Below are positions 3,251 through 51,126 of a stretch of 64,000 nucleotides of DNA, piece by piece; the first letter of the stretch is position 1; each line of letters opens with the position of its first letter. Origin of the DNA: a phage. Under the pieces are notes generated by a model. It worked only from the letters and a program-made list of their open reading frames with translations. It did no database searches and had not been told where the DNA came from. The position numbers and the translations under genes are program-made. The stretch lies in the sequence record PZ386977.1. One strand, given 5' to 3'.

Positions 3251-3882
3251 TGTTCGCCTCGTAACATGGCACCTAGTGAACCGCCTGGATGGAACTTAAG
3301 GAAGTCATTAGAGGTAAATCCACGTTCAGACGAAAGGTTGATAGCGAACGTATCGATAAGCGCTAACAACAATGTAGTGGACATGGTCGGAGCCAGAGAA
3401 TTCTCATCAACCTCTACCGCGATGCCTGTACAGAACGTATAATCAAAAAGAGCTTCGTATTCTTGCGGAATGTCAGGGTTACAATGTAACAGAATCTGTT
3501 TAACCTGAGGACGAATCATACGAAGATGTTTAGCAACACCTATCATTTCTTCAGTCTTACCAGAACGACTGATGTGAACTAATACATCATTAGGTGCAAT
3601 AAATCCTGCGTCGCCATGAGAATAATGCCCGGTGTTCAAATACATGCTAGGAATACCTAGTGAAGCAAAAGTCTCGGAAGCTTTAGTTGCGATATTAGCG
3701 TTCTTACCAACACCTGTAATAATTACTCGGCTTTCATAATTACTCAGTCCAGGGCGACGAAGAGTTTCAAGAATAGCATTATATCGGGCAGAGTTTTGAC
3801 TAATTACTTTAGCCATAGTGGCAAGAGATGAAGCTTGTTTTACGATTGCGTCAATAGCGATAGTGATTGGTGTAGTTTTCAT
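3247..3882 (-). CDS. SIS-domain sugar-phosphate isomerase (GmhA/KdsD-like)
   Basis: 211 aa; ITGVGKNANIA and HISRSGKTEE SIS-type motifs. Confidence 0.7.
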   Translation of the reverse strand: MKTTPITIAIDAIVKQASSLATMAKVISQNSARYNAILETLRRPGLSNYESRVIITGVGKNANIATKASETFASLGIPSMYLNTGHYSHGDAGFIAPNDVLVHISRSGKTEEMIGVAKHLRMIRPQVKQILLHCNPDIPQEYEALFDYTFCTGIAVEVDENSLAPTMSTTLLLALIDTFAINLSSERGFTSNDFLKFHPGGSLGAMLRGEQ

Positions 3883-3922
3883 ATTTCTCTCATTTAATTA
3901 GTTTACCGTCCATGGCATTATA

Positions 3923-6634
3923 TCAAAAATCGAACATATCGAACAGAGATGCTTTCTTCTCGTAATCGAGTTTCGCTGCTGATGTGAATCCTTCAAGTGG
4001 TTTAATAAATGTCTTCTCAAGGAGAACAGTGTAGTCCATCCAATGAAGTACGTCGTCTTTAATTAAATCTGTGATTTCAGTACCAGAAGGCCATGCGATA
4101 CATTTATCACCGAATGGGTTTCCTTCACGTAAAGGCAGAACATATACCTTTTCGCCTTCTACAACTTGTGGAGCATCAATATTACCTTTGATAGCCCGGT
4201 TATACGTCAGAATTCCACGAATATGGAACGGACATTTTGGACCAGGGAATCCACCTACATCATATTTAGCAATGTTATTCGCAGAAGATACCGACGCGAT
4301 GCTAATATAATTCAATTGACGGAATTCTTTTTCAAACTCTTTAAAATATTCTTGTAATGATTCTTCACCTTCTTGAAGCATACGACGAATACATTCTTTA
4401 AGAGCTTTCTGTACCGCTTTAGGAGTTGAAGATTTCTGTGTTTCGAGACCCATGATTTTGAGTTTAGGCTCAGCGTAACGAGTACCTTCCATATCCCACA
4501 CGTTTAATGCGTAACGTTTCTTACCAGTCCAGAATCCACCAATACCTTTAGAGCCAAGTGGAGGACCAGCGATAGCTTCTCGGTCCATGAACATTAAGTG
4601 TTGTTTATTGTTCATGTATTCACACATTTCACGGAAACCTCTATCAATAGCAGGTTCCATACGTTCACGAGCGAACTTATCTAAGAAGTCCACCCAATGG
4701 TTGGTATCACGGAATTTAGATTCACCAACCTTATCAATAATTTTATCAGCAGATACGTAAATAGAGTCTGTATCACCATATAGAACGAAAGCTTCACCTT
4801 CTGTACCACAAACTTCATTCAGATATTCATTAACTTTACGTTCAATCCACTGTAAAGCCATTTGCCCGAATGTTGTGATTGCAGTAGCATTACGCAAATC
4901 ATAATAACGGAACCAAACGTTGCCAAGTGCACCATAAAGTGAGTTGATAAGCAATTTACGGTTAATTTGTGCAGTCATACCTGCAACTTCAGTACGTTGA
5001 GCTCTAAACAACATTTCATTAAGAGATTTAGCAGACAACTTTTTAATCTTTTCTTTAATCTCATCGCTGAAGTCGAAACGATAATCAACATCTAACGGTT
5101 CGTCAACAGAAAGATTAGGATTATGCAATGCCTCTTTAATTATTTCACCATTACGTTGAGCTGCAAGCATGTAACCTTTATGTTCTTTACGTTGATTAAA
5201 GACCTTAGTGATTTCAGTTGGAACTACACCATCACGGTCTTTATAATACATCATGCCATTAGGAGAGCAGCTGTACACATCTGAAGGACGTTCAGCGATT
5301 GCGTTAATATAATCATGCAATGGAGCTACTTTAAACGTTCCTGCTATTGTTTCTGGGCTAATATTCACTTGGCGAATAATACTTGGATACAGAGATGTAA
5401 GGTCGAAACTCATTACATATTTGTATCGATTTGGAATAGGTTCCTTAACAAAAGCGCCAGGATAAGGTTGAACCGGGTGAGAACGACCTTGTGGAATCAC
5501 CTTGTTCTGCTCTTTAAGGCTATTAAAAATAATAGCATCCCATGTTTTAATTGGGCTGAACACAGATTGAATCTGTATCTTAGCATAATAACCCATGTCC
5601 AAACTCAAGTTGATGAACTGGCGCTTAGCATCAATTTGCAATACACGATACACGTCGATGATGTTATAAGAAATATATCGTTGGTGATTGCTTTCACGAA
5701 GCTTAGAAATAGGGCCGTCATATTTCAGTTTACCAACGTTCAATTCAAATTCTGAAATGTAATCCAGAGAATACGACGGTTGATTAGTAAAAGAGAATTT
5801 TTTGTAAAGGTCAATGTAATCAAGAACAGAGATACCGAACAATGTAATGATTTCACGAGAACCATACATGTTTTCGATAACTTTAACACGAGTTTTACGA
5901 TGTGGTGATAAACGTTTCGCAGTAGATTCACCAAAAATATTCTTGATTCTGTTATACACATATGGAATATCAAATGACTCAACGTTCCATCCAGTCAAAA
6001 TGACAGGAGTTTTCTGTTGCCAGAAGTTGAGATATTCCATCAACAATTCTTTTTCGTTATCGAACGGCATATAAATGATTTTATCGATAATTTCAGATGG
6101 AACTTCATCACCACCTTGTTCTTGAAGCTTAGCAGCGATTTCAATAGACCATTCTTCCACATTGCCGTATGGAGAATTCAATAGATCAAATACATAGAAC
6201 CTGTCGTCAATTGAGTCATAATGGGTGATAGCATCAATCGGATGTTTTGCTTGTGACGGCTCAGGGAACCCATCCGGAGATGTTACTTCGATGTCGAAGT
6301 TAGCCACACGAATTTTTGTATGGTCGTATTTGATTTCATAGTTATAAGTGTCAGACAAATACGCCAATTTGAAATCGTCCATGCCAAGTGCTTCAAGTCC
6401 GATATCTTCCATGCGTTTAATCCATTGGGAGGCATCACGCATATTAGCGAACAACTTACGAGTACACGGCTTACCGTAGATATCGAAATATTTCGTGGCC
6501 TGACTTTCTGGACAATGAGCAAACAATGATGGTTTATATTCTACTTCACGAGTACGTTCACGGCCATTAGAATCGATGTAACGTTCAAAAATTGAATCAC
6601 CAATCTGTTCAACCGTTAAGTAAAATTCTTTCAT
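3923..6634 (-). CDS. 43: DNA polymerase, family B (gp43)
   Basis: 903 aa; exo motif FDIEV; polymerase motifs SLYPS, KILINSLYG, YGDTDS, KKRY; N-terminus MKEFYLTVEQIGDSIFERYID matches my recollection of RB69 gp43. Confidence 0.97.
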   Translation of the reverse strand: MKEFYLTVEQIGDSIFERYIDSNGRERTREVEYKPSLFAHCPESQATKYFDIYGKPCTRKLFANMRDASQWIKRMEDIGLEALGMDDFKLAYLSDTYNYEIKYDHTKIRVANFDIEVTSPDGFPEPSQAKHPIDAITHYDSIDDRFYVFDLLNSPYGNVEEWSIEIAAKLQEQGGDEVPSEIIDKIIYMPFDNEKELLMEYLNFWQQKTPVILTGWNVESFDIPYVYNRIKNIFGESTAKRLSPHRKTRVKVIENMYGSREIITLFGISVLDYIDLYKKFSFTNQPSYSLDYISEFELNVGKLKYDGPISKLRESNHQRYISYNIIDVYRVLQIDAKRQFINLSLDMGYYAKIQIQSVFSPIKTWDAIIFNSLKEQNKVIPQGRSHPVQPYPGAFVKEPIPNRYKYVMSFDLTSLYPSIIRQVNISPETIAGTFKVAPLHDYINAIAERPSDVYSCSPNGMMYYKDRDGVVPTEITKVFNQRKEHKGYMLAAQRNGEIIKEALHNPNLSVDEPLDVDYRFDFSDEIKEKIKKLSAKSLNEMLFRAQRTEVAGMTAQINRKLLINSLYGALGNVWFRYYDLRNATAITTFGQMALQWIERKVNEYLNEVCGTEGEAFVLYGDTDSIYVSADKIIDKVGESKFRDTNHWVDFLDKFARERMEPAIDRGFREMCEYMNNKQHLMFMDREAIAGPPLGSKGIGGFWTGKKRYALNVWDMEGTRYAEPKLKIMGLETQKSSTPKAVQKALKECIRRMLQEGEESLQEYFKEFEKEFRQLNYISIASVSSANNIAKYDVGGFPGPKCPFHIRGILTYNRAIKGNIDAPQVVEGEKVYVLPLREGNPFGDKCIAWPSGTEITDLIKDDVLHWMDYTVLLEKTFIKPLEGFTSAAKLDYEKKASLFDMFDF

Positions 6635-37150: not shown

Positions 37151-37459
37151 TCAATTAGAAAATAAATTTATCCAAGATTTTTCTTTAATCAAAAATGGGT
37201 CGGAATTAAACGCCATTAAACTTTGAGTGATTAATCCCTTAAATGGCCCGTCAATAAATTCCATTTTGAAATGCGGAATACTAGTCATCAACCGTGCATT
37301 AGGAGCAGTACAAAGAACCTGCTGCCCTGCAAACGGCCCTTTAGTCAAACGGTATCGTTTAGGTTTAAAATGGTAAATCTCGTAATTTTCTACAAGAGCC
37401 CTTTTATTGCATACTGGGCTGTTATAACAATACTCGAAAACTTCAATAGTGGTCATCAT
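37151..37459 (-). CDS. hypothetical protein
   Basis: 102-aa ORF. Confidence 0.5.
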   Translation of the reverse strand: MMTTIEVFEYCYNSPVCNKRALVENYEIYHFKPKRYRLTKGPFAGQQVLCTAPNARLMTSIPHFKMEFIDGPFKGLITQSLMAFNSDPFLIKEKSWINLFSN

Positions 37460-37995
37460 TGCATTCCAATCACAAAAAATTGAGGACGAGCATTACCGCC
37501 GATGCAATATTTGCTTTTGCAGCAGTGCTGTACTGTTTTAATGTGGACATTGTAAATCTTATCCATATCAGGAGCTTTAATAGGCTCGTCAATTATATAC
37601 AGAATACGAGAAAGCGTTAATCCACGGAATTTAGAACCTTCATTGCCAATAAAACTACGAACAGAATCAGTAAATAAACGGAATCGAATATCGTCGCTAG
37701 AATAACGAGAAAATTCTTTTTCAATGTTGCCAGCAGAAATTTTAGCATAAGCTGAAGTATTAGAAAGAACAATAACTGTTCCGCCATCATACAGCCAATT
37801 AGCAGCAAAGTTAGTCACAGCAATTGATTTACCTGATTGTCGGCCGCCGTCTAAACGAAGTGTACAGTACTGCTTGAGTACGTCTTCAAATGGTGGGACA
37901 TAACCGTTCTTACAAATTTCTTCTACTCTAGCATCAGAATGGTGTGTAAAAGCATTCATCAGGGATAGATAAGGTCCGGTTAAAAATGTTCTCAT
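37456..37995 (-). CDS. hypothetical protein (possible P-loop GGRQSGKS)
   Basis: 179-aa ORF. Confidence 0.5.
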   Translation of the reverse strand: MRTFLTGPYLSLMNAFTHHSDARVEEICKNGYVPPFEDVLKQYCTLRLDGGRQSGKSIAVTNFAANWLYDGGTVIVLSNTSAYAKISAGNIEKEFSRYSSDDIRFRLFTDSVRSFIGNEGSKFRGLTLSRILYIIDEPIKAPDMDKIYNVHIKTVQHCCKSKYCIGGNARPQFFVIGMQ

Positions 37996-38173
37996 TTAGT
38001 TTCTCTTAAGGTTGGGGCCATTCCGTGGCACATGAATTGTCCATTTCTGTATTTACCCATTACCGCACTTGGGCTCGACCTTATTACAGGTTGGCGGGAA
38101 TCCCTCATAGAATCATGAGGTCCAGGTTGTTCCCATGTTATTTAAATGTAAATATGCCTAAGTATAGGCCTTA

Positions 38174-38752
38174 TTAATTACCACGGGCTGCATTAGCAAC
38201 GGCGTAAGCGTACTGAACATTAGCGTCTTTAAATGTACCTTTAGAGGTATCTATTTCTGCCTTAAAGCCGCCTTTAGCCATAACATCGGCAAATTCTTTA
38301 CGGAAAGCCATTGCATCAAGACCTTTCCATGATGATTTATGCTTGGCAAATTCAAGACCAGCGAAATTGACCGCTTTAGCCAGTTTATTATCAATAACCC
38401 ATTTACCGGCTTTAGGCACAAACTTCGGGCCTTTTTGTTTAGAGAATAGTTTTAAATTCCATCGACGAAGGTCACTGTCTGCTTTAACAAAAGCTGCGTC
38501 TAAGTTACTAGCAACAACATCTTCAATATGGGCAAATTTAAGTCCGTCAACTTCAATATTTAGATCGTTACGCCAGCGAAGTCCTTCCCAAGCGAAGGCT
38601 TTAAAGTCGGAAGCCTTTGTAGCTAAGTACCGTTCAATAGGAGCTGTTTTAGGGTCAAAGCCGTTTCCGCCACGATAAGTCCACTCGTCCTTATTAATGC
38701 CTTGAGCTTTTCCTGCAAAGGCTTCGGCGATAAATTCTTTATACGTTTTCAT
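38174..38752 (-). CDS. internal head protein (IPIII-like) with capsid-targeting leader
   Basis: 192 aa; starts MKTYKEFIAE| (prohead-protease LxE-type site). Confidence 0.75.
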   Translation of the reverse strand: MKTYKEFIAEAFAGKAQGINKDEWTYRGGNGFDPKTAPIERYLATKASDFKAFAWEGLRWRNDLNIEVDGLKFAHIEDVVASNLDAAFVKADSDLRRWNLKLFSKQKGPKFVPKAGKWVIDNKLAKAVNFAGLEFAKHKSSWKGLDAMAFRKEFADVMAKGGFKAEIDTSKGTFKDANVQYAYAVANAARGN

Positions 38753-38777
38753 TTTGTTCCTATTTATTTAATTTATG

Positions 38778-39092
38778 TTATTCTTTAGGGAAGTTTTTAG
38801 AGTATGCGTCATAAAGTTTATTACCAATACGACGGAAGACTTTAGCTGCAAAACGGTTTTCAGGGTTTTTAATCATGATTTGCATCATGTAAGTTCCTGC
38901 ATCCGAAAGAGCTTCTTCGTAGTACCCATTAATTTCTTTAAGAGTCCTACGTTTACCGCCAGGACCATCAACGGTAATTTTCCATTTACCTGTAGAAGTG
39001 CGGCTCGGTGGCTCAACTTGTTCAATCCAAATATAACCACCTTCAACGCGTTGGTTGGCGGATTCTGCAATAAATTCTTTATACGTTTTCAT
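38778..39092 (-). CDS. internal head protein (IPII-like) with capsid-targeting leader
   Basis: 104 aa; starts MKTYKEFIAE. Confidence 0.75.
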   Translation of the reverse strand: MKTYKEFIAESANQRVEGGYIWIEQVEPPSRTSTGKWKITVDGPGGKRRTLKEINGYYEEALSDAGTYMMQIMIKNPENRFAAKVFRRIGNKLYDAYSKNFPKE

Positions 39093-39257
39093 TTTTGTTT
39101 CCTTGTTTGTTTTGATAGAGTAATTATACCATATTAATACTTAAGCGTAAACAATTTAAGCTTTACCGCCAGAAATAATTCCAAAGTTGTTAAAATCGTA
39201 TCCAATATCGTCAACATCCACTTTAGGGATAAATTCTTGATACATTTTCATTTTTCC

Positions 39258-39671
39258 TTAGTAAATTGATTTACCATAGTATTTGTACCAAGTCGGACGT
39301 TGAGCAATTTTTTCATCTAAGCGTGCTTGACTTATCGCAATGGACGCTTCGGACGGGACATAATTATTACGAAATTCGGCAGGGATGTCGGAAATATCCT
39401 GGACAGTCGTGTCCTTGATTTTGAAACCACGTTTCAAGCATTCAGCGATTAACTCGATTTGTCGTAAACGTAAAAATTCAAGTTTGTCGTAAAAGAATGT
39501 TACGTGACCTGTGCCTAAGATAAATGTTGGAGAGATTTTAAAATCCTTTACACGTTTACCGTTTTGAACATGTTTACGGACCGCACCAAATACGCGTGGT
39601 AATTCACGATACTCAGCCATAAGATGTTGGTCGGTCAGTTCAGAAACAAGTGTTAAATTGATACGGGTCAT
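39258..39671 (-). CDS. denV: endonuclease V (pyrimidine-dimer DNA glycosylase) DenV
   Basis: [34 protein letters not shown] matches T4 DenV; ATG after GGAGG SD (track ORF starts at upstream TTG). Confidence 0.92.
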
Positions 39672-39729
39672 AATTTCCTCCAAGTAGTTGATGAATGTAT
39701 AGTATCAAAACCCTTGGAGGAAGTAAACA

Positions 39730-40026
39730 CTATTTTTCTGAAGCGCCTGAAATATATTTTTCAAGACGTTGTTTCATCAGAGAGCCGTTCTTAGCGATTT
39801 CTTCCGGCTTATCGCACATACGTAACAAGGCTTCAAGCTTAGCGATATCACTGGTGCGCTCAAATTTGCGAGTATCTATCTTACTAGCAAGTTCAGAAAT
39901 ACGTGCTAATAGACTTTCGGCTTCAACCAAAGCTGCACCTAGCTTAGTTGCAAATGTGTCAGTAGCTTCGTTAAGAATAGATTCTGATAAAAATTCATTA
40001 TATGTTTTCATATATACGCTTTCCAA
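39730..40026 (-). CDS. internal-protein-like protein with capsid-targeting leader
   Basis: 98 aa; starts [10 protein letters not shown]. Confidence 0.7.
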
Positions 40027-40496
40027 GTTCCTGTTTTAAATGTTGAGATTACGCGTTTCGCGCGATTAGGTGTCTGACGATACCATTTAGATTGGGCTAG
40101 ATTTACTGCCGCTTCATCCCAACGTTTCTGCTGAAGCATACGAAGAGAATTAGTAAAACCGGCGACGCCTGCTACACCCATTTGGAAGACCATATTGACC
40201 AATGCACACCGACGAACTGCATCTAAAGAATCATATACCGGTTTAAGTTTAGCATTACCCAAGATTCCGCGAACGGCTTTATCAACGTCTTCATTAAATA
40301 GCTTTTCAGCCTCATCAAGGGTAATTGTACCGTTGCATTTACGACCGATCATTCTGTCAAGTTCAGCTTTAGCTACGGCTAAAGACGGGTTCTTTGTTAC
40401 TAAATGGCCTATGCCAATCGTCCAAAAGCCTTCAGTGTCTTTGTATAAAGTCAGTCTAAGACCTTCGTCATTACGAAGCATTTCAAATATATTCAT
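40008..40496 (-). CDS. e: lysozyme (endolysin) e
   Basis: [32 protein letters not shown], 162 aa from internal ATG, T4 lysozyme-like. Confidence 0.95.
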
Positions 40497-40530
40497 AATA
40501 CCTCCCACGTTTATAGGAGGTATTTATTAC
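40497..40530 (-). promoter_or_regulatory. SD-sequestering hairpin plus late-promoter-like AATAAATA upstream of e
   Basis: mRNA ACCUCC-N10-GGAGGU places the GGAGG SD in the 3' arm; AATAAATA lies just 5' of the hairpin. Confidence 0.55.
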
Positions 40531-40989
40531 TTATAGGAGTGTAGTGAGCACCTTATATAATGATTTGCCCATTACATATTCCCATTGAGAAGGTTTAATT
40601 AAAGCGAATGCATCAAATTCAGGAATCTGTCGTCCGTCTGGGAATGTATGATATGAATTACAAACACTGTTTCTGAATTGCTCGTGCTCTACAGGGATGG
40701 TATATAGGAACAGATGAATATTCTTATTGTCTGAGTAATGATGTTCACCTAGGTCTTTCAGGAAGGCAGGGTCATATTGTGTAAACCCGGTTTCTTCTTC
40801 GCATTCGCGAATAGCGGCTTCAATAGGAGATTCGCCAGGCTCGACACGTCCTTTAGGAATATCCCACCGATGAGCTAAAGAACCTTTAGGACGAGAACCA
40901 GTTACACGCCCCATGAATAATTCTTTATCTTCGGTAAGGAAAATAATACCGGCTGATAGTTCTTTCACTTTATTTTTCTTACTCATCAT
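40531..40989 (-). CDS. nudE: Nudix hydrolase NudE
   Basis: 152 aa; Nudix box GRVEPGESPIEAAIRECEEETG. Confidence 0.85.
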   Translation of the reverse strand: MMSKKNKVKELSAGIIFLTEDKELFMGRVTGSRPKGSLAHRWDIPKGRVEPGESPIEAAIRECEEETGFTQYDPAFLKDLGEHHYSDNKNIHLFLYTIPVEHEQFRNSVCNSYHTFPDGRQIPEFDAFALIKPSQWEYVMGKSLYKVLTTLL

Positions 40990-41230
40990 CTCGGTCCCAT
41001 GATTTGGCCATTAATTCGGACATAAATTCTTCAATGCGCGTTTCTTTAGATGGGCTTTCACTATTAGAGACCGCAAGTTTGTAATCTGCAATAGGACAGA
41101 ACATATCAAAGTCCATATTAAGGTCGTCTTTGATTTTTTCTTCTGACACATCTTTATCGTATGTGTACAGATAACTATCACATGATTCTGATTTAATGTA
41201 AATTGCTATACTCATCTCAAATTCCTGCAT
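40979..41230 (-). CDS. hypothetical acidic protein
   Basis: 83-aa ORF. Confidence 0.45.
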   Translation of the reverse strand: MQEFEMSIAIYIKSESCDSYLYTYDKDVSEEKIKDDLNMDFDMFCPIADYKLAVSNSESPSKETRIEEFMSELMAKSWDRDDE

Positions 41231-47537: not shown

Positions 47538-48158
47538 TTACTTACGAGTTTTTGCATACTGAGCAGCGTCAGCAGCCAAACGACCTGCCTGACGAAGTTT
47601 TTCTTTAATCGCATCGTGAAGTGGTTGAGTATACTTCAAACCTTCGATAGTCAAATAAAGACGATAAAGGTCTGGGGTATCAAGGTTGTTGATATGTTGG
47701 CCATTACGAAGACTGTTGAATTCACGAACGAGTGAAGATGTATCGGATTCAATATCACGAACAAGCGAAGATAGTTGTTTATATTTTTTTTCCAGGCTAG
47801 AAGTATCAAACTTAAGAGCAGGAGCTTTAGGAGTTGCTTTTACTTCCGGCTTAGGCTCAGGTTTTGCTTTAGGGGCCGCAGGTTTAGGAACGGTAGGAGC
47901 AGGTTTTACTTTAGGCGAACCCGATTTAGCAGAAACACCACCACTAACAATATCTTTGAATGCTTTAGAAGCTCTGTAATATTCTTTTTGGGTGGAAGTG
48001 TCGATACCGTACATGGCTTGAACGTTTTTGAAAAACTCTGTACTAGTTTTTGTACCAGAAATAGCATCGTAAGCAGCTTGCCATTTCTCTTTTGTCATAC
48101 GTACACCGGCTTCGGTGATTACTTCCGTTTCGGCTAAAAATTCATTAAAAGTATACAT
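47538..48158 (-). CDS. internal-protein-like protein with capsid-targeting leader and Pro/Ala/Lys-rich segment
   Basis: 206 aa; starts MYTFNEFLAE; KVKPAPTVPKPAAPKAKPEPKPEVKATPKAPALK low-complexity block. Confidence 0.65.
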   Translation of the reverse strand: MYTFNEFLAETEVITEAGVRMTKEKWQAAYDAISGTKTSTEFFKNVQAMYGIDTSTQKEYYRASKAFKDIVSGGVSAKSGSPKVKPAPTVPKPAAPKAKPEPKPEVKATPKAPALKFDTSSLEKKYKQLSSLVRDIESDTSSLVREFNSLRNGQHINNLDTPDLYRLYLTIEGLKYTQPLHDAIKEKLRQAGRLAADAAQYAKTRK

Positions 48159-48193: not shown

Positions 48194-48201
48194 TATTTAT
48201 A
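48194..48201 (-). promoter_or_regulatory. late promoter TATAAATA
   Basis: minus-strand TATAAATA between tRNA-cluster terminator and the 48158 start. Confidence 0.5.
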
Positions 48202-48897: not shown

Positions 48898-48974
<77 letters not shown>

Positions 48975-48978
48975 TATT

Positions 48979-49053
48979 TGGCGGACGTGATAGGATTCGA
49001 ACCTATAACCAATCGCTTAACAGGCGATCGCTCTGCCATTGAGCTACACATCC
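48979..49053 (-). tRNA. tRNA-Asn (anticodon GUU), CCA encoded
   Basis: anticodon loop CUGUUAA; T-arm AUAGG-UUCGAAU-CCUAU. Confidence 0.8.
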
Positions 49054-49057
49054 AAAT

Positions 49058-49144
49058 TGGTGGGGAGTGATGGAGTCGAACCACCCGAGTCGCAATGACA
49101 ATGGATTTACAGTCCACACCGCTACCTCTACGGGATAACTCCCC
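49058..49144 (-). tRNA. tRNA-Tyr (anticodon GUA), long variable arm, CCA encoded
   Basis: anticodon loop CUGUAAA; 87 nt; T-arm GGUGG-UUCGACU-CCAUC. Confidence 0.7.
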
Positions 49145-49156
49145 TAATTCATAATT

Positions 49157-49231
49157 TGGTGGCCCTGGGTGGAATTGAACCACCATCTGGCGATTATGAG
49201 TCGCTTGCTTGAACCTTCCAGCTACAGGGCC
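49157..49231 (-). tRNA. tRNA-Ile (anticodon CAU, lysidine-type) or elongator tRNA-Met, CCA encoded
   Basis: anticodon loop CUCAUAA; sits at the T4 tRNA-Ile position. Confidence 0.7.
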
Positions 49232-49232
49232 T

Positions 49233-49308
49233 TGGTGCTGATTGACGGAATCGAACCGCCGACCTTCTCATTACAAGTGAGTTGCTCTACCTACTGAGCT
49301 AAATCAGC
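49233..49308 (-). tRNA. tRNA-Thr (anticodon UGU), CCA encoded
   Basis: anticodon loop CUUGUAA; acceptor GCUGAUU/AAUCAGC. Confidence 0.8.
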
Positions 49309-49313
49309 AAAAC

Positions 49314-49403
49314 TGGCGGAGGCGATAGGATTTGAACCTATGAGTCGCCGGAGCGACTGCCGGTTTTCAAGACCGGTGCATTAAACCACTCTGCCACGCC
49401 TCC
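49314..49403 (-). tRNA. tRNA-Ser (anticodon UGA), long variable arm, CCA encoded
   Basis: anticodon loop CUUGAAA; 90 nt. Confidence 0.8.
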
Positions 49404-49405
49404 AG

Positions 49406-49479
49406 TCTCCATACAAGGATTTGAACCTTGGGCCTCCTGATCCCAAATCAGGCGCTCTACCAAACTGAGCTACACGGAG
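49406..49479 (-). tRNA. tRNA-Pro (anticodon UGG)
   Basis: anticodon loop UUUGGGA; T-arm CAAGG-UUCAAAU-CCUUG; no encoded CCA. Confidence 0.75.
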
Positions 49480-49489
49480 TAAATTAAAT

Positions 49490-49563
<74 letters not shown>

Positions 49564-49568
49564 AAATT

Positions 49569-49655
49569 TGGTGCGAGAAGTGGGACTCGAACCCACAAGG
49601 AAATCATTCCGCAGCATTTTAAGTGCTGTGCCTTTACCAATTTGGCCATTCTCGC
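49569..49655 (-). tRNA. tRNA-Leu (anticodon UAA), long variable arm, CCA encoded
   Basis: anticodon loop CUUAAAA; 87 nt. Confidence 0.8.
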
Positions 49656-49656
49656 G

Positions 49657-49729
49657 CTGGGAATAAAGGACTCGAACCTTTGCATCCTGGAATCAAAATC
49701 CAGTGCCTTACCAACTTGGCTAATTCCCA
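49657..49729 (-). tRNA. tRNA-Gln (anticodon UUG)
   Basis: anticodon loop UUUUGAU; acceptor UGGGAAU/AUUCCCA; abuts tRNA-Leu (dimeric precursor as in T4). Confidence 0.8.
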
Positions 49730-50120: not shown

Positions 50121-50530
50121 CCTTCATCAACAATAGTATGAGTATGGGCATTTACAATTTGCCACCAATCAAAGCGATTAGAACCATACATCAGGTTGTT
50201 CTCATTTTCTTTGATAATGTCACGGAGTTCATCTTCAGTAGCGGCTTTCGCGATTAAATCAGCATATCCACCGCGAGGATAATAATTATCACCTGCAAAA
50301 AGTAAAAAGTTCGGTTTAATATTATTGAACTCTTCAAGAGTAATAACTTTTCCTGTCGGTTGAACAATCTCTACATATTTATATCCTAATTTTTGAGCAG
50401 CATCTACTGCTTCAAGCAAAGTATCATGAGCCCATCCAATTTGACAACCTGGCTTTTCAGATGGATTAGCCTGATAATCCGCGTACACTTTATACATTCT
50501 ATTCACCTTTTGCAATTTTATCCATAACAA
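50117..50530 (-). CDS. hypothetical protein
   Basis: 137-aa ORF (possible internal start at 50497). Confidence 0.5.
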   Translation of the reverse strand: MLWIKLQKVNRMYKVYADYQANPSEKPGCQIGWAHDTLLEAVDAAQKLGYKYVEIVQPTGKVITLEEFNNIKPNFLLFAGDNYYPRGGYADLIAKAATEDELRDIIKENENNLMYGSNRFDWWQIVNAHTHTIVDEG

Positions 50531-50705
50531 TAGCGATTAAGCCGATTAGAAATGCTACTACCAATGAGATAGAATTTTCGGTTGTTGTCAGTAGTCCGCA
50601 AATGAATCCTACAAACATCGAAAAACTAAAAGCCATTGAAGCAATTACTACAGCAACATTACGAATCAGTTCAGCGCGTTTCATTTTATTTCTCCATTTA
50701 CTCAT
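50499..50705 (-). CDS. small membrane protein
   Basis: 68 aa with two hydrophobic helices. Confidence 0.45.
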   Translation of the reverse strand: MSKWRNKMKRAELIRNVAVVIASMAFSFSMFVGFICGLLTTTENSISLVVAFLIGLIAIVMDKIAKGE

Positions 50706-50721
50706 TTGTTTTGATAGGACT

Positions 50722-50751
50722 ACTATAACATAGTCCTATCGGCATGTAAAC
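50722..50751 (-). promoter_or_regulatory. early promoter GTTTACA-N17-TATAGT embedded in perfect 10-bp-arm palindrome
   Basis: GATAGGACTACTATAACATAGTCCTATC at 50713..50740; the -35 overlaps the upstream stop codon. Confidence 0.55.
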
Positions 50752-51062
50752 TATTTTATGCCTTTAGATGAAATAGTATTCTGGCGTTTGACCCCTGTTT
50801 GTGAAAAATCGTGGTTATCGATTTGGTCGACTCGCATAACACCAAATGCAGATTTAATTTTAGCCTTTGAACCTTTTTTGATACTAATTACCATATAAGT
50901 ATCATTTTTCTTATATTCGAAATTTGTTACTTCAACGCCTTGATTAGAAATTGACTTAATAATAGCATTAGCGTATTCATCATCTAACGGGCCGTTAGTG
51001 TTAATAACAAAATTTTTATCCGCTTTAGTAGCTTCCGCGATAAACTCTTGATACGTTTTCAT
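50751..51062 (-). CDS. internal protein I-like protein with capsid-targeting leader
   Basis: 103 aa; starts MKTYQEFIAE; position next to 57B as T4 ipI. Confidence 0.7.
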   Translation of the reverse strand: MKTYQEFIAEATKADKNFVINTNGPLDDEYANAIIKSISNQGVEVTNFEYKKNDTYMVISIKKGSKAKIKSAFGVMRVDQIDNHDFSQTGVKRQNTISSKGIK

Positions 51063-51096
51063 TTTATTTCCTTGAGGTTGTTTATTTGATAGGATG

Positions 51097-51126
51097 ATAG
51101 TATCACACCATCATCCTTATGTAAAC
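51097..51126 (-). promoter_or_regulatory. early promoter GTTTACA-N17-TACTAT
   Basis: minus-strand GTTTACATAAGGATGATGGTGTGATACTAT upstream of 51062 start. Confidence 0.5.

Follow-up and report, generated by a model that had tools for sequence, protein, structure and literature searches.

The window, by which we mean the whole 64-kb stretch of DNA analyzed here, comes from an RB69-group T4-like Mosigvirus (arabinosyl-hmC group). All six reading frames were scanned for M-started peptides with no more than four mismatches to MKTYKEFIAE, and six such ORFs were found, every one of them on the minus strand. The initial annotation had listed five leader genes, all of which were recovered, and had missed the sixth, ip31. 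It had also extended one gene, ip93, to position 40026; this is an upstream TTG, and relatives annotate an ATG at 40011. Five of the six ORFs lie within the two hyperplastic internal protein (IP) loci, either between e and vs.8, where the gene order is e-ip93-denV-ip31-ip104-ip192-vs.8, or adjoining 57B. The remaining one, ip206, sits between these loci and adjoins the tRNA cluster (Table 1).

Table 1. Positions of the leader ORFs, denV, and conserved elements in the window
Feature	Coordinates	Strand	Basis or remark
ip192, T4 IPIII (Ip3) ortholog, 192 aa	38174..38752	-	Homology, phrog_5341
ip192 leader block, 30 nt, codons 1-10	38723..38752	-	Direct repeat of 39063..39092
ip104, Ip10-family internal protein, 104 aa	38778..39092	-	tblastn, phrog_3966
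Early-promoter-like element (GTTTAC ... TATAAT ... CTATCAAAAC) upstream of ip104	39096..39152	-	Consensus and pattern scan
ip31, remnant of an 86-aa CTS-bearing internal protein, 31 aa	39156..39251	-	Alignment to full-length genes
denV, endonuclease V	39258..39671	-	Annotated in relatives; leader-less, within IP array
Early-promoter-like element, ip93 stop codon to denV start	39672..39728	-	GTTTAC ... GATACTAT pattern
ip93, Ip5-like internal protein, 93 aa	39730..40011	-	phrog_3499, ipV homology
ip206, CTS-like protein, 206 aa	47538..48158	-	Leader MYTFNEFLAE...ITE/AG
Early-promoter and inverted-repeat element directly downstream of ip103	50690..50751	-	Cassette 3' boundary
ip103, Ip7-family internal protein, 103 aa	50751..51062	-	Classical ipI locus, adjoins 57B
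Early-promoter and inverted-repeat element upstream of ip103	51063..51126	-	GTTTAC ... GATACT pattern

The ORFs share an N-terminal capsid targeting sequence (CTS), MKTY.EF(I/L).E, and the rest of each protein is unrelated to the others. A full match to M-K-T-Y/F-x-E-F-(I/L)-x-E is present in four of the six; the departures are at residues 2 and 4 in ip206 (Y2, F4) and at residues 3, 9, and 10 in ip31. For IPIII, the N-terminal 10 residues are enough for packaging, and within the CTS, residues 4 and 7 control targeting while residues 8 and 10 control processing by gp21 (PMC9026906). An aromatic residue 4 and Phe7 are kept in all six window ORFs, and (I/L)8 and Glu10 in every one except ip31, which has Lys10; the leader was thus correctly recognized at the outset as the T4 CTS. 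In the DNA, the copies agree with one another at 18 to 28 of the first 30 nt, compared to 8 to 13 of 30 for nt 31 to 60 and 8 to 18 of 30 for the 30 nt upstream. The leader of ip192 matches that of ip104 at 28/30 positions and that of ip103 at 27/30, and a 30-mer leader query allowing three mismatches gave 3 matches versus 0.00 expected. The description of the leader DNA as nearly identical therefore holds for three copies, and the other three are related but more diverged. Divergence past the leader, also claimed initially, was evident from the mature parts, between which no pairwise BLASTP similarity was detected at E<=1. The proteins fall in separate PHROG families, with cross-matches confined to about residues 1 to 20. 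Pfam yielded no family above threshold for any leader protein, and a PDB sequence search with the five full-length proteins found no relatives.

Four of these proteins could be assigned to named families by homology: Ip3 (95%), Ip10 (97%), Ip7 (68%), and Ip5-like (47%); ip206 matched none. The mature part of ip192 (CTS MKTYKEFIAE; predicted 182 aa, pI 9.6) has 95% amino acid and 91% nucleotide identity to T4 ipIII, matches the "internal virion protein" family phrog_5341 at an E value of 9e-118, and is labelled ipIII or internal virion protein in relatives. ip104 has the same CTS and a mature protein of 94 aa (pI 9.6). By tblastn, its identity is 96.8% to the "Ip10 internal head protein" of PP01 and 72% to ip10 of VR25, with matches in 190 phage records, and its SP18 homolog is named Ip10 in one source. 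Its AlphaFold2 model (pLDDT 48), built from three homologs only, was unusable. ip93 starts within the stop of the lysozyme gene e, the two overlapping as ATGA, and has no promoter of its own. Its mature protein of 83 aa is not basic (pI 6.3), matches phrog_3499 "internal head protein" (E 2e-46), is 47 to 48% identical to GiZh proteins annotated ipV and to bas37_0261, and is found at 98 to 100% identity in many Mosigvirus records. At the other locus, ip103 (CTS MKTYQEFIAE; mature protein of 93 aa, pI 9.5) is 68 to 69% identical to RB15 ip7 (GenBank Z35082) and T2 "internal head protein 7" and matches phrog_2667 (E 7e-39). We also considered recent cross-genus transfer as an explanation for the T4-like Ip genes. 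Nucleotide identity to T4 is 91% for ipIII with flanks at 71 to 81%, and is 86% for ip10 and 80 to 92% for the moha IPI; these elevations are too small to distinguish transfer from purifying selection, and the explanation was set aside.

The two remaining genes of the e to vs.8 locus are of a different kind. ip31 has a degenerate leader, MKMYQEFIPK, and arose by an in-frame internal deletion of 165 nt, as revealed by alignment to the genes of p000v, S143_2, moha, and phi25-307; the same deletion was seen in none of the records listed. It matches phrog_35655, and the full-length form also matches phrog_2667. Since Glu10 and most of the body are lost, ip31 is probably nonfunctional. The same gene underwent a separate, independent deletion in PhAPEC2, and in p000v, the first ATG of the full-length homolog is mutated to ACG. 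These features raise the question of whether some leader ORFs are decaying remnants or miscalled, nonfunctional ORFs, a reading that we regard as very improbable for the set. The decay applies to ip31 only, whereas the other five are full length and 93 to 100% conserved in many genomes. In addition, Ip10 has 97% amino acid identity at 86% nucleotide identity between genera, a pattern indicating that it is under strong purifying selection. denV, which has no leader, shares 77.5% nucleotide identity with T4 denV. Phages differ in where it sits among the IP genes, and PP01 lacks it at this locus.

The arrangement of these genes was compared across 42 denV loci, comprising the window, five GenBank relatives, and 36 IMG/VR contigs. 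All 94 leader ORFs in these loci are on the denV strand, and clustering of their mature parts gave 15 unrelated groups, which occur in shuffled order. Close relatives allowed individual exchanges to be located at base level. The ip104 cassette is missing in moha, PhAPEC2, L006, and L007. In PhAPEC2 and moha, the upstream region of ip104 is fused to the ip192 body, the indel is exactly one leader-to-leader unit of 340 nt, and the crossover interval for this loss or gain falls in the leader block at 38723..38752. Similarly, when S143_2 was compared to phi25-307, the upstream region of an IPII-like gene was joined, within the leader, to the ip109 body. For both of these cassette gains or losses, the junction must fall within the approximately 27-nt leader repeat. 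A replacement was found at the ipI locus, where moha, p000y, and typing phage 6 carry a T4-IPI homolog in place of ip103. Homology stops at 51040 (codon 8), which puts the 5' boundary in the leader, and returns at 50756 (the stop codon), with the stop codon and promoter element marking the 3' boundary; the crossover itself could lie anywhere upstream of the leader. The breakpoint mapping in related phages that the initial annotation had proposed thus gave two junctions inside the leader and one 5' homology boundary in it, and the junctions in close relatives support recombination at the leader. T4 itself is known to recombine at homologies of 2 to 10 bp (PMC9391042).

The leader is not the only sequence that recurs between cassettes. 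The element upstream of ip104 scores 10/12 against the promoter consensus, with a TG extension, and elements of its type also flank IP genes in relatives and T4. The element found between ip93 and denV has a counterpart of homologous type ahead of denV in T4. The element upstream of ip103, which contains an inverted repeat (51091-51101/51107-51117), is conserved in moha, LF82-35, typing phage 6, and T4. The one downstream of ip103 has a perfect 10-nt inverted repeat (50713-50722/50731-50740), and in LF82-35 and typing phage 6, whose IP genes are arrayed in tandem, an element of this type comes after each of them. The early-promoter/inverted-repeat element is a second conserved block between cassettes besides the leader. 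The leader had been described initially as the recombination block; the junctions in relatives bear this out, with the qualification that the early-promoter/inverted-repeat element is a substrate as well.

These elements also provide the basis for an alternative that we consider unlikely, although less so than decay: that the leader is conserved solely for capsid targeting, shuffling is driven by intergenic elements and random microhomology, and junctions in the leader are incidental. The elements flank cassettes and set the 3' boundary of the ip103 replacement, the leader-less denV also shifts position and is absent from the locus in PP01, and the deletions in ip31 and its PhAPEC2 counterpart used little or no homology. 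Plasticity of IP loci has been ascribed to promoter/stem-loop elements (Arbiol 2010, PMC2839356). However, two independent indels each join the upstream-specific sequence of one gene to the body of the next, with the junction only inside the leader. Codon usage in the leader is also distinctive, with TAT at 92%, TTT at 98%, and ATC at 65%, versus 68%, 67%, and 20% in codons 2 to 10 of other genes, and synonymous identity in the leader was 0.75 versus 0.60 expected. Both comparisons leave shared descent and gene conversion uncontrolled, and they are at most a hint of selection on the leader DNA beyond the needs of the peptide. The leader (approximately 27 to 30 nt) and the promoter/inverted-repeat element recur between unrelated cassettes, and homologous recombination therefore shuffles the cassettes. 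Taken together, the genes are very likely T4-type IP cassettes in an RB69-group phage, encoding CTS-led, mostly basic proteins that are shuffled at the leader and at promoter/inverted-repeat elements.

By analogy with T4, each protein would be anchored by its leader to the prohead scaffolding core, the gp21 prohead protease would cleave after Glu10, and the mature protein would be retained in the head with the DNA and then injected into the next host, where it would act ahead of all phage gene expression. Recombination at the leader or the promoter-repeat elements would add, delete, and replace cassettes, giving each phage a different repertoire. The motif, the family assignments, the cassette polymorphism, and the junction positions were observed directly, and we infer packaging, cleavage, and injection of the window proteins from their resemblance to the T4 proteins. 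Both gp21 and gp22 are absent from the 64-kb window; the gp21 prohead protease and gp22 scaffold are core genes of the Straboviridae. A literature search found no virion proteome for a Mosigvirus or for these protein families.

What such proteins do after injection is best indicated by T4, in which Ip1, Ip2, and Ip3 act as inhibitors of different GmrSD type IV enzymes, one each (Silas 2025, PMC12373910), and IPIII is required for infection of ECOR17 (PMC9391042). An inhibitor of McrBC has also been found among CTS proteins at the ipI locus (bioRxiv 10.1101/2025.11.20.689424). Among the window proteins, ip192 alone has an experimentally characterized ortholog, the GmrSD-ECOR17 inhibitor T4 Ip3, and by analogy its most probable role is to block a modification-dependent nuclease of the GmrSD type. 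Other first-line defenses may be the targets of the Ip10, Ip5-like, and Ip7 proteins, and we infer an anti-defense activity for the non-Ip3 proteins generally. No similarity beyond the leader was found between ip104, ip93, ip103, or ip206 and Ip1, Ip2, Ip3, or Bas37_0260. Transfer of function from Bas37_0260, the McrBC inhibitor of phage KarlGJung, was rejected, as the window has no homolog of it. It is quite improbable that the proteins are instead mainly structural or DNA-condensing head components, serving as scaffold helpers or charge neutralizers. The mature proteins of four of the six leader ORFs are basic (pI 9.5 to 9.8), head assembly is aberrant in T4 IPIII- and triple-IP mutants, and each T4 IP is present at about 300 copies per head (PMC9026906); ip206 has a histone-tail-like linker and a late promoter motif. 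Conversely, each of the three T4 IPs inhibits a GmrSD enzyme specifically and, when produced inside the host, does so even in a form lacking the CTS (PMC12373910, PMC9391042). The IP genes are dispensable and patchily distributed, with 144 to 497 matching records per protein versus 916 for the locus, and their rapid turnover is atypical for structural proteins. The anti-defense reading put forward in the initial annotation is thus supported by the inhibition of distinct GmrSD enzymes by all three T4 IPs and by the ip192 orthology.

ip206 stands apart from the other leader ORFs. It matched 144 phage records; all among the matches listed are annotated "hypothetical protein," and an internal-protein annotation appeared in none of the records listed. 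In homologs from JS98-like phages, F7 and E16 are invariant. A TATAAATA late-promoter motif lies nearby at 48194..48201, the only one near any leader gene. The AlphaFold2 model (pLDDT 71) has two helical domains separated by a disordered Pro/Ala/Lys linker. Foldseek found no match to this model in the PDB at E<=0.001 and only uncharacterized proteins in BFVD, and a search for distant relatives in IMG/VR returned three close loci only. Its fixed position, late promoter, occurrence in at least six Tevenvirinae genera, IPI-style extended leader with a putative cut after the invariant Glu16, and histone-tail-like linker lead us to propose, tentatively and at somewhat less than even odds, that ip206 represents an unrecognized class of capsid-targeted internal protein. 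If so, CTS-dependent packaging would reach beyond the two hyperplastic loci and the fast-evolving anti-restriction cassettes. This unannotated 206-aa CTS-like family is the sole modest lead from the analysis.

The T4 IPs are the closest known counterparts of the window proteins. They have the same N-terminal leader, with the same residues for targeting and gp21 cleavage, and the same small basic character, and they occupy the same two loci, one between e and vs.8 and the other between 57B and the tRNA-side genes. In contrast to T4, the window encodes neither an IPI nor an IPII homolog, and its e to vs.8 order differs from the T4 order e-ipIII-ipII-denV-vs.8. Hyperplastic IP loci and their shuffling in T-even phages were reportedly described by Repoila in 1994 (EMBO J 13:4181), when ip4 to ip10 were named, and CTS function is said to have been the subject of Mullaney and Black in 1996. 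Those loci, like the ones in the window, reportedly vary in the number, order, and identity of CTS ORFs, and the named Ip7 and Ip10 are matched by ip103 and ip104, including through the 1994 GenBank entry Z35082. Unlike in that work, the phage here is a Mosigvirus, ip206 lies outside the two classical loci, and base-level junctions among close relatives are added. More than 30 IP variants are credited to Comeau 2007, and conserved early-promoter/stem-loop elements between IP ORFs to Repoila 1994, both as cited in Arbiol 2010 (PMC2839356). The PeSL cassettes of RB49 and phi1 described in that paper are similar in that short conserved regulatory motifs flank small nonessential ORFs, which are gained, lost, and replaced through them. 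The window elements differ in being based on the T4 early promoter with AT-rich inverted repeats, making them analogs rather than homologs, and the window additionally uses a coding repeat, the leader, as a junction. The GmrSD inhibitors Ip1 to Ip3 and the McrBC inhibitor Bas37_0260 (HIDEN-SEQ preprint) are injected CTS proteins from the same loci, of which the window has an Ip3 ortholog. A published hypothesis that all genes of the two Ip loci target type IV restriction variants is directly applicable here. The DNA modification of RB69-group phages differs (PMC6024577), and the targets of their IPs may therefore differ as well.

The finding of IP cassettes is correct, well supported, and already described, the idea dating from 1994. 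Its value for the window is practical rather than conceptual: it gives the names Ip3, Ip10, Ip5-like, and Ip7 to mostly "hypothetical" genes, predicts one target class (GmrSD of the ECOR17 type), supplies base-level examples for the cassette exchange proposed in 1994, and flags one unannotated candidate family, ip206. Internal proteins act before phage gene expression, so the range of restriction-armed hosts open to a phage depends in part on its repertoire, which bears on the choice and engineering of therapeutic T4-like phages.

The region spanning 37400-41000 matched 916 phage records, and the best matches (96-97% identity) were to phiEC1, p000v, phi25-307, and PhAPEC2, all of which fall in the RB69 group (Mosigvirus) among the T4-like phages. 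Nearly all genes of the window are carried on the minus strand. A six-frame scan for M-started ORFs with no more than four mismatches to MKTYKEFIAE, a form of the capsid-targeting sequence (CTS), or leader, of T4 internal proteins (IPs), produced exactly six ORFs, which we named by their length in amino acids. The five genes listed in the initial annotation were real, but a sixth, of 31 aa, had been overlooked, and the gene end placed at 40026 corresponds to an upstream TTG; relatives annotate the ATG at 40011. Copies of the leader were identical at 18 to 28 of 30 positions over nucleotides 1-30 and at 8 to 13 of 30 over nucleotides 31-60, and a search with the leader 30-mer allowing up to three mismatches gave 3 matches versus 0.00 expected. 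Past the leader, no pairwise similarity was found among the window's leader proteins, which belong to different PHROG families whose cross-matches were confined to approximately residues 1-20. These results confirm that the genes have a common leader and then diverge completely.

Leader-bearing ORFs from the six-frame scan and what each matched
ORF	Coordinates	Strand	Length (aa)	Identity
ip192	38174..38752	-	192	Ortholog of T4 IPIII/Ip3 (mature part 95% aa identity)
ip104	38778..39092	-	104	Ip10 (96.8% to the Tequatrovirus PP01 protein bearing this name; 72% to its VR25 and SP18 counterparts)
ip31	39156..39251	-	31	Remnant of an 86-aa internal protein
ip93	39730..40011	-	93	47-48% to Tequatrovirus proteins annotated ipV/internal head protein, including bas37_0261
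ip206	47538..48158	-	206	144 matching records, 'hypothetical' in all among the matches listed
ip103	50751..51062	-	103	Ip7 (68-69% to RB15 ip7, GenBank Z35082, and T2 Ip7)

Pfam and PDB sequence searches with the leader proteins gave no match, and the predicted structure of ip104 was unusable. Functional transfer from Bas37_0260, an McrBC inhibitor, was rejected, as it has no homolog in the window. The ip93 start codon overlaps the stop codon of the lysozyme gene e as ATGA (40008..40011) and no promoter-like element of its own was found, which suggests that ip93 translation is coupled to e. At the DNA level, ipIII was 91% identical to T4 (38157..38761 versus 3818..4425 of locus L086) and neighbouring genes were 71-81% identical; this high identity could stem from a stronger constraint, or from exchange at a more recent date between genera that reportedly do not recombine. 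Across genera, the identity of Ip genes just modestly exceeded that of their flanks.

The proposal that these genes are swapped by recombination at the leader was supported by breakpoints mapped in relatives. The ip104 cassette, carried by the window, p000v, S143_2, and phi25-307, is missing from moha and PhAPEC2, the indel being 340 nt, exactly one leader-to-leader unit. In PhAPEC2, upstream sequence specific to ip104 is fused to ip192-specific codons, which places the crossover within the common 27 nt, CAAAATGAAAACGTATAAAGAATTTAT. In phi25-307, ip109 and an IPII-like gene (93% identity to T4 IPII) lie between ipIII and vs.8; S143_2 is without the IPII-like gene, and the junction lies inside the leader. 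At the ipI locus, a T4-IPI homolog replaces Ip7 in moha, p000y, and typing phage 6 between flanks that are 98% identical, with homology stopping at 51040 (codon 8) and restarting at 50756 (stop codon), and LF82-35 carries Ip7 and the IPI homolog in tandem. The ip104 and IPII-like events require a junction inside the leader regardless of event direction, and the Ip7/IPI replacement is compatible with such a junction without requiring one. T4 is known to recombine at homologies of 2-10 bp (PMC9391042), so leader homology of approximately 27 nt is ample.

Codon use within the leaders of 94 IP genes (window and loci L001-L041) was unusually uniform, with TAT at 85/92 (92%), TTT at 91/93 (98%), and ATC at 47/72 (65%), compared to 0.68, 0.67, and 0.20, respectively, for codons 2-10 of other window genes, whose N-termini have no such uniformity. 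For Ile, the leader favoured ATC over the more usual ATT. This excess synonymous identity fits shared descent or homogenisation and does not prove selection for recombination.

The ip31 ORF originated by a 165-nt in-frame internal deletion, with loss of the cleavage Glu, in a gene whose intact form is found in p000v (where the first ATG is ACG), S143_2, moha, and phi25-307; this deletion was found in no other record among the matches listed. PhAPEC2 carries an independent 144-nt in-frame deletion in the same gene, at the short microhomology GKCCTAAA, and the leader together with the same 21-23 residues of the C-terminus is retained in both deletions.

The gene order in the window was e-ip93-denV-ip31-ip104-ip192-vs.8, compared to e-ipIII-ipII-denV-vs.8 in T4 and e-ip10-ipIV-vs.8 in PP01 (L102), where the endonuclease V gene denV is absent from this locus. 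A survey covered 42 denV loci, of which 36 came from IMG/VR contigs and five from GenBank relatives, the remaining one being that of the window. All 94 leader-bearing ORFs in these loci were on the denV strand, and their mature parts formed 15 unrelated clusters in many orders, with IPIII found on either side of denV. Cassettes were separated by a conserved element in which a GTTTAC -35 hexamer is followed by a -10 hexamer of the T4 early type, in many cases by an inverted repeat, and then by CTATCAAAAC. This element occurred on both sides of ip103, upstream of both ip104 and denV, and downstream of ip206. The same element flanks IP genes in relatives and in T4, and it is the one that Arbiol 2010 credits Repoila 1994 with seeing at the IP loci. 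The denV stretch (39258..39728) has no leader yet lies between the same early-promoter-type elements, and its place in the array varies between phages, so denV behaves as a cassette too.

In the intergenic region 37996..38173, between ip192 and vs.8, relatives hold additional IP genes, either ip109 alone or ip109 together with the IPII-like gene, and a 46-nt segment with a small stem-loop (38095..38140) is private to the window. The stretch of approximately 70 nt upstream of vs.8 resembles the phi25-307 region upstream of ip109, another repeated block. Downstream of ip103, a small membrane-protein ORF (50499..50705) has an ambiguous start: it encodes 68 aa from the first ATG, which lies inside the promoter/inverted-repeat element, and the form annotated in relatives starts at MKRAEL and has 61 aa.

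The ip206 protein has a CTS-like N-terminus, and its gene position is conserved in at least six Tevenvirinae genera; homologs include those of JS98-like phages, and F7 and E16 were invariant across genera. The sole late-promoter motif near any leader gene, TATAAATA, lies at 48194..48201, approximately 40 nt upstream of the ip206 ATG. The structure model had two helical domains joined by a disordered Pro/Ala/Lys-rich linker (residues 74-111), and no informative structural neighbour of the model was found. Between ip206 and the ipI-type locus are ten tRNA genes (48898..49729; Arg, Asn, Tyr, Met, Thr, Ser, Pro, Gly, Leu, and Gln), compared to eight at this place in T4.

In T4, the first ten residues of IPIII are sufficient for packaging, residues 4 and 7 of the CTS set targeting and residues 8 and 10 set gp21 processing, and internal proteins are present at about 300 copies each per head and leave it with the DNA (PMC9026906; PMC3012670). 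The targeting residues were kept in all six window ORFs and the cleavage site in five, and four of the mature proteins had a pI of 9.5-9.8. T4 Ip1, Ip2, and Ip3 act against GmrSD type IV enzymes, each inhibiting a different one (PMC12373910), infection of ECOR17 requires IPIII, which works without its CTS when host-expressed (PMC9391042), and another CTS protein from the ipI locus inhibits McrBC (bioRxiv 10.1101/2025.11.20.689424). Because of its orthology to Ip3, ip192 is predicted to inhibit a GmrSD of the ECOR17 type, and the other leader proteins are predicted to be injected effectors. Since the DNA of RB69-group phages contains arabinosyl-hmC (PMC6024577), the targets of these other proteins may differ from those of T4. 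The retained CTS residues, the Ip3 ortholog, and the GmrSD inhibition by T4 Ip1 to Ip3 support the earlier reading of an injected, plausibly anti-defence set.

The initial observation is correct and its interpretation supported, for a system that is already known, having been described in 1994, with biochemistry in 1996 and function extended in 2022-2025. The present analysis adds the assignment of the genes to named families, the ip31 remnant, three mapped junctions, a second conserved block in the form of the promoter/inverted-repeat element, and one unannotated CTS-like family (ip206).
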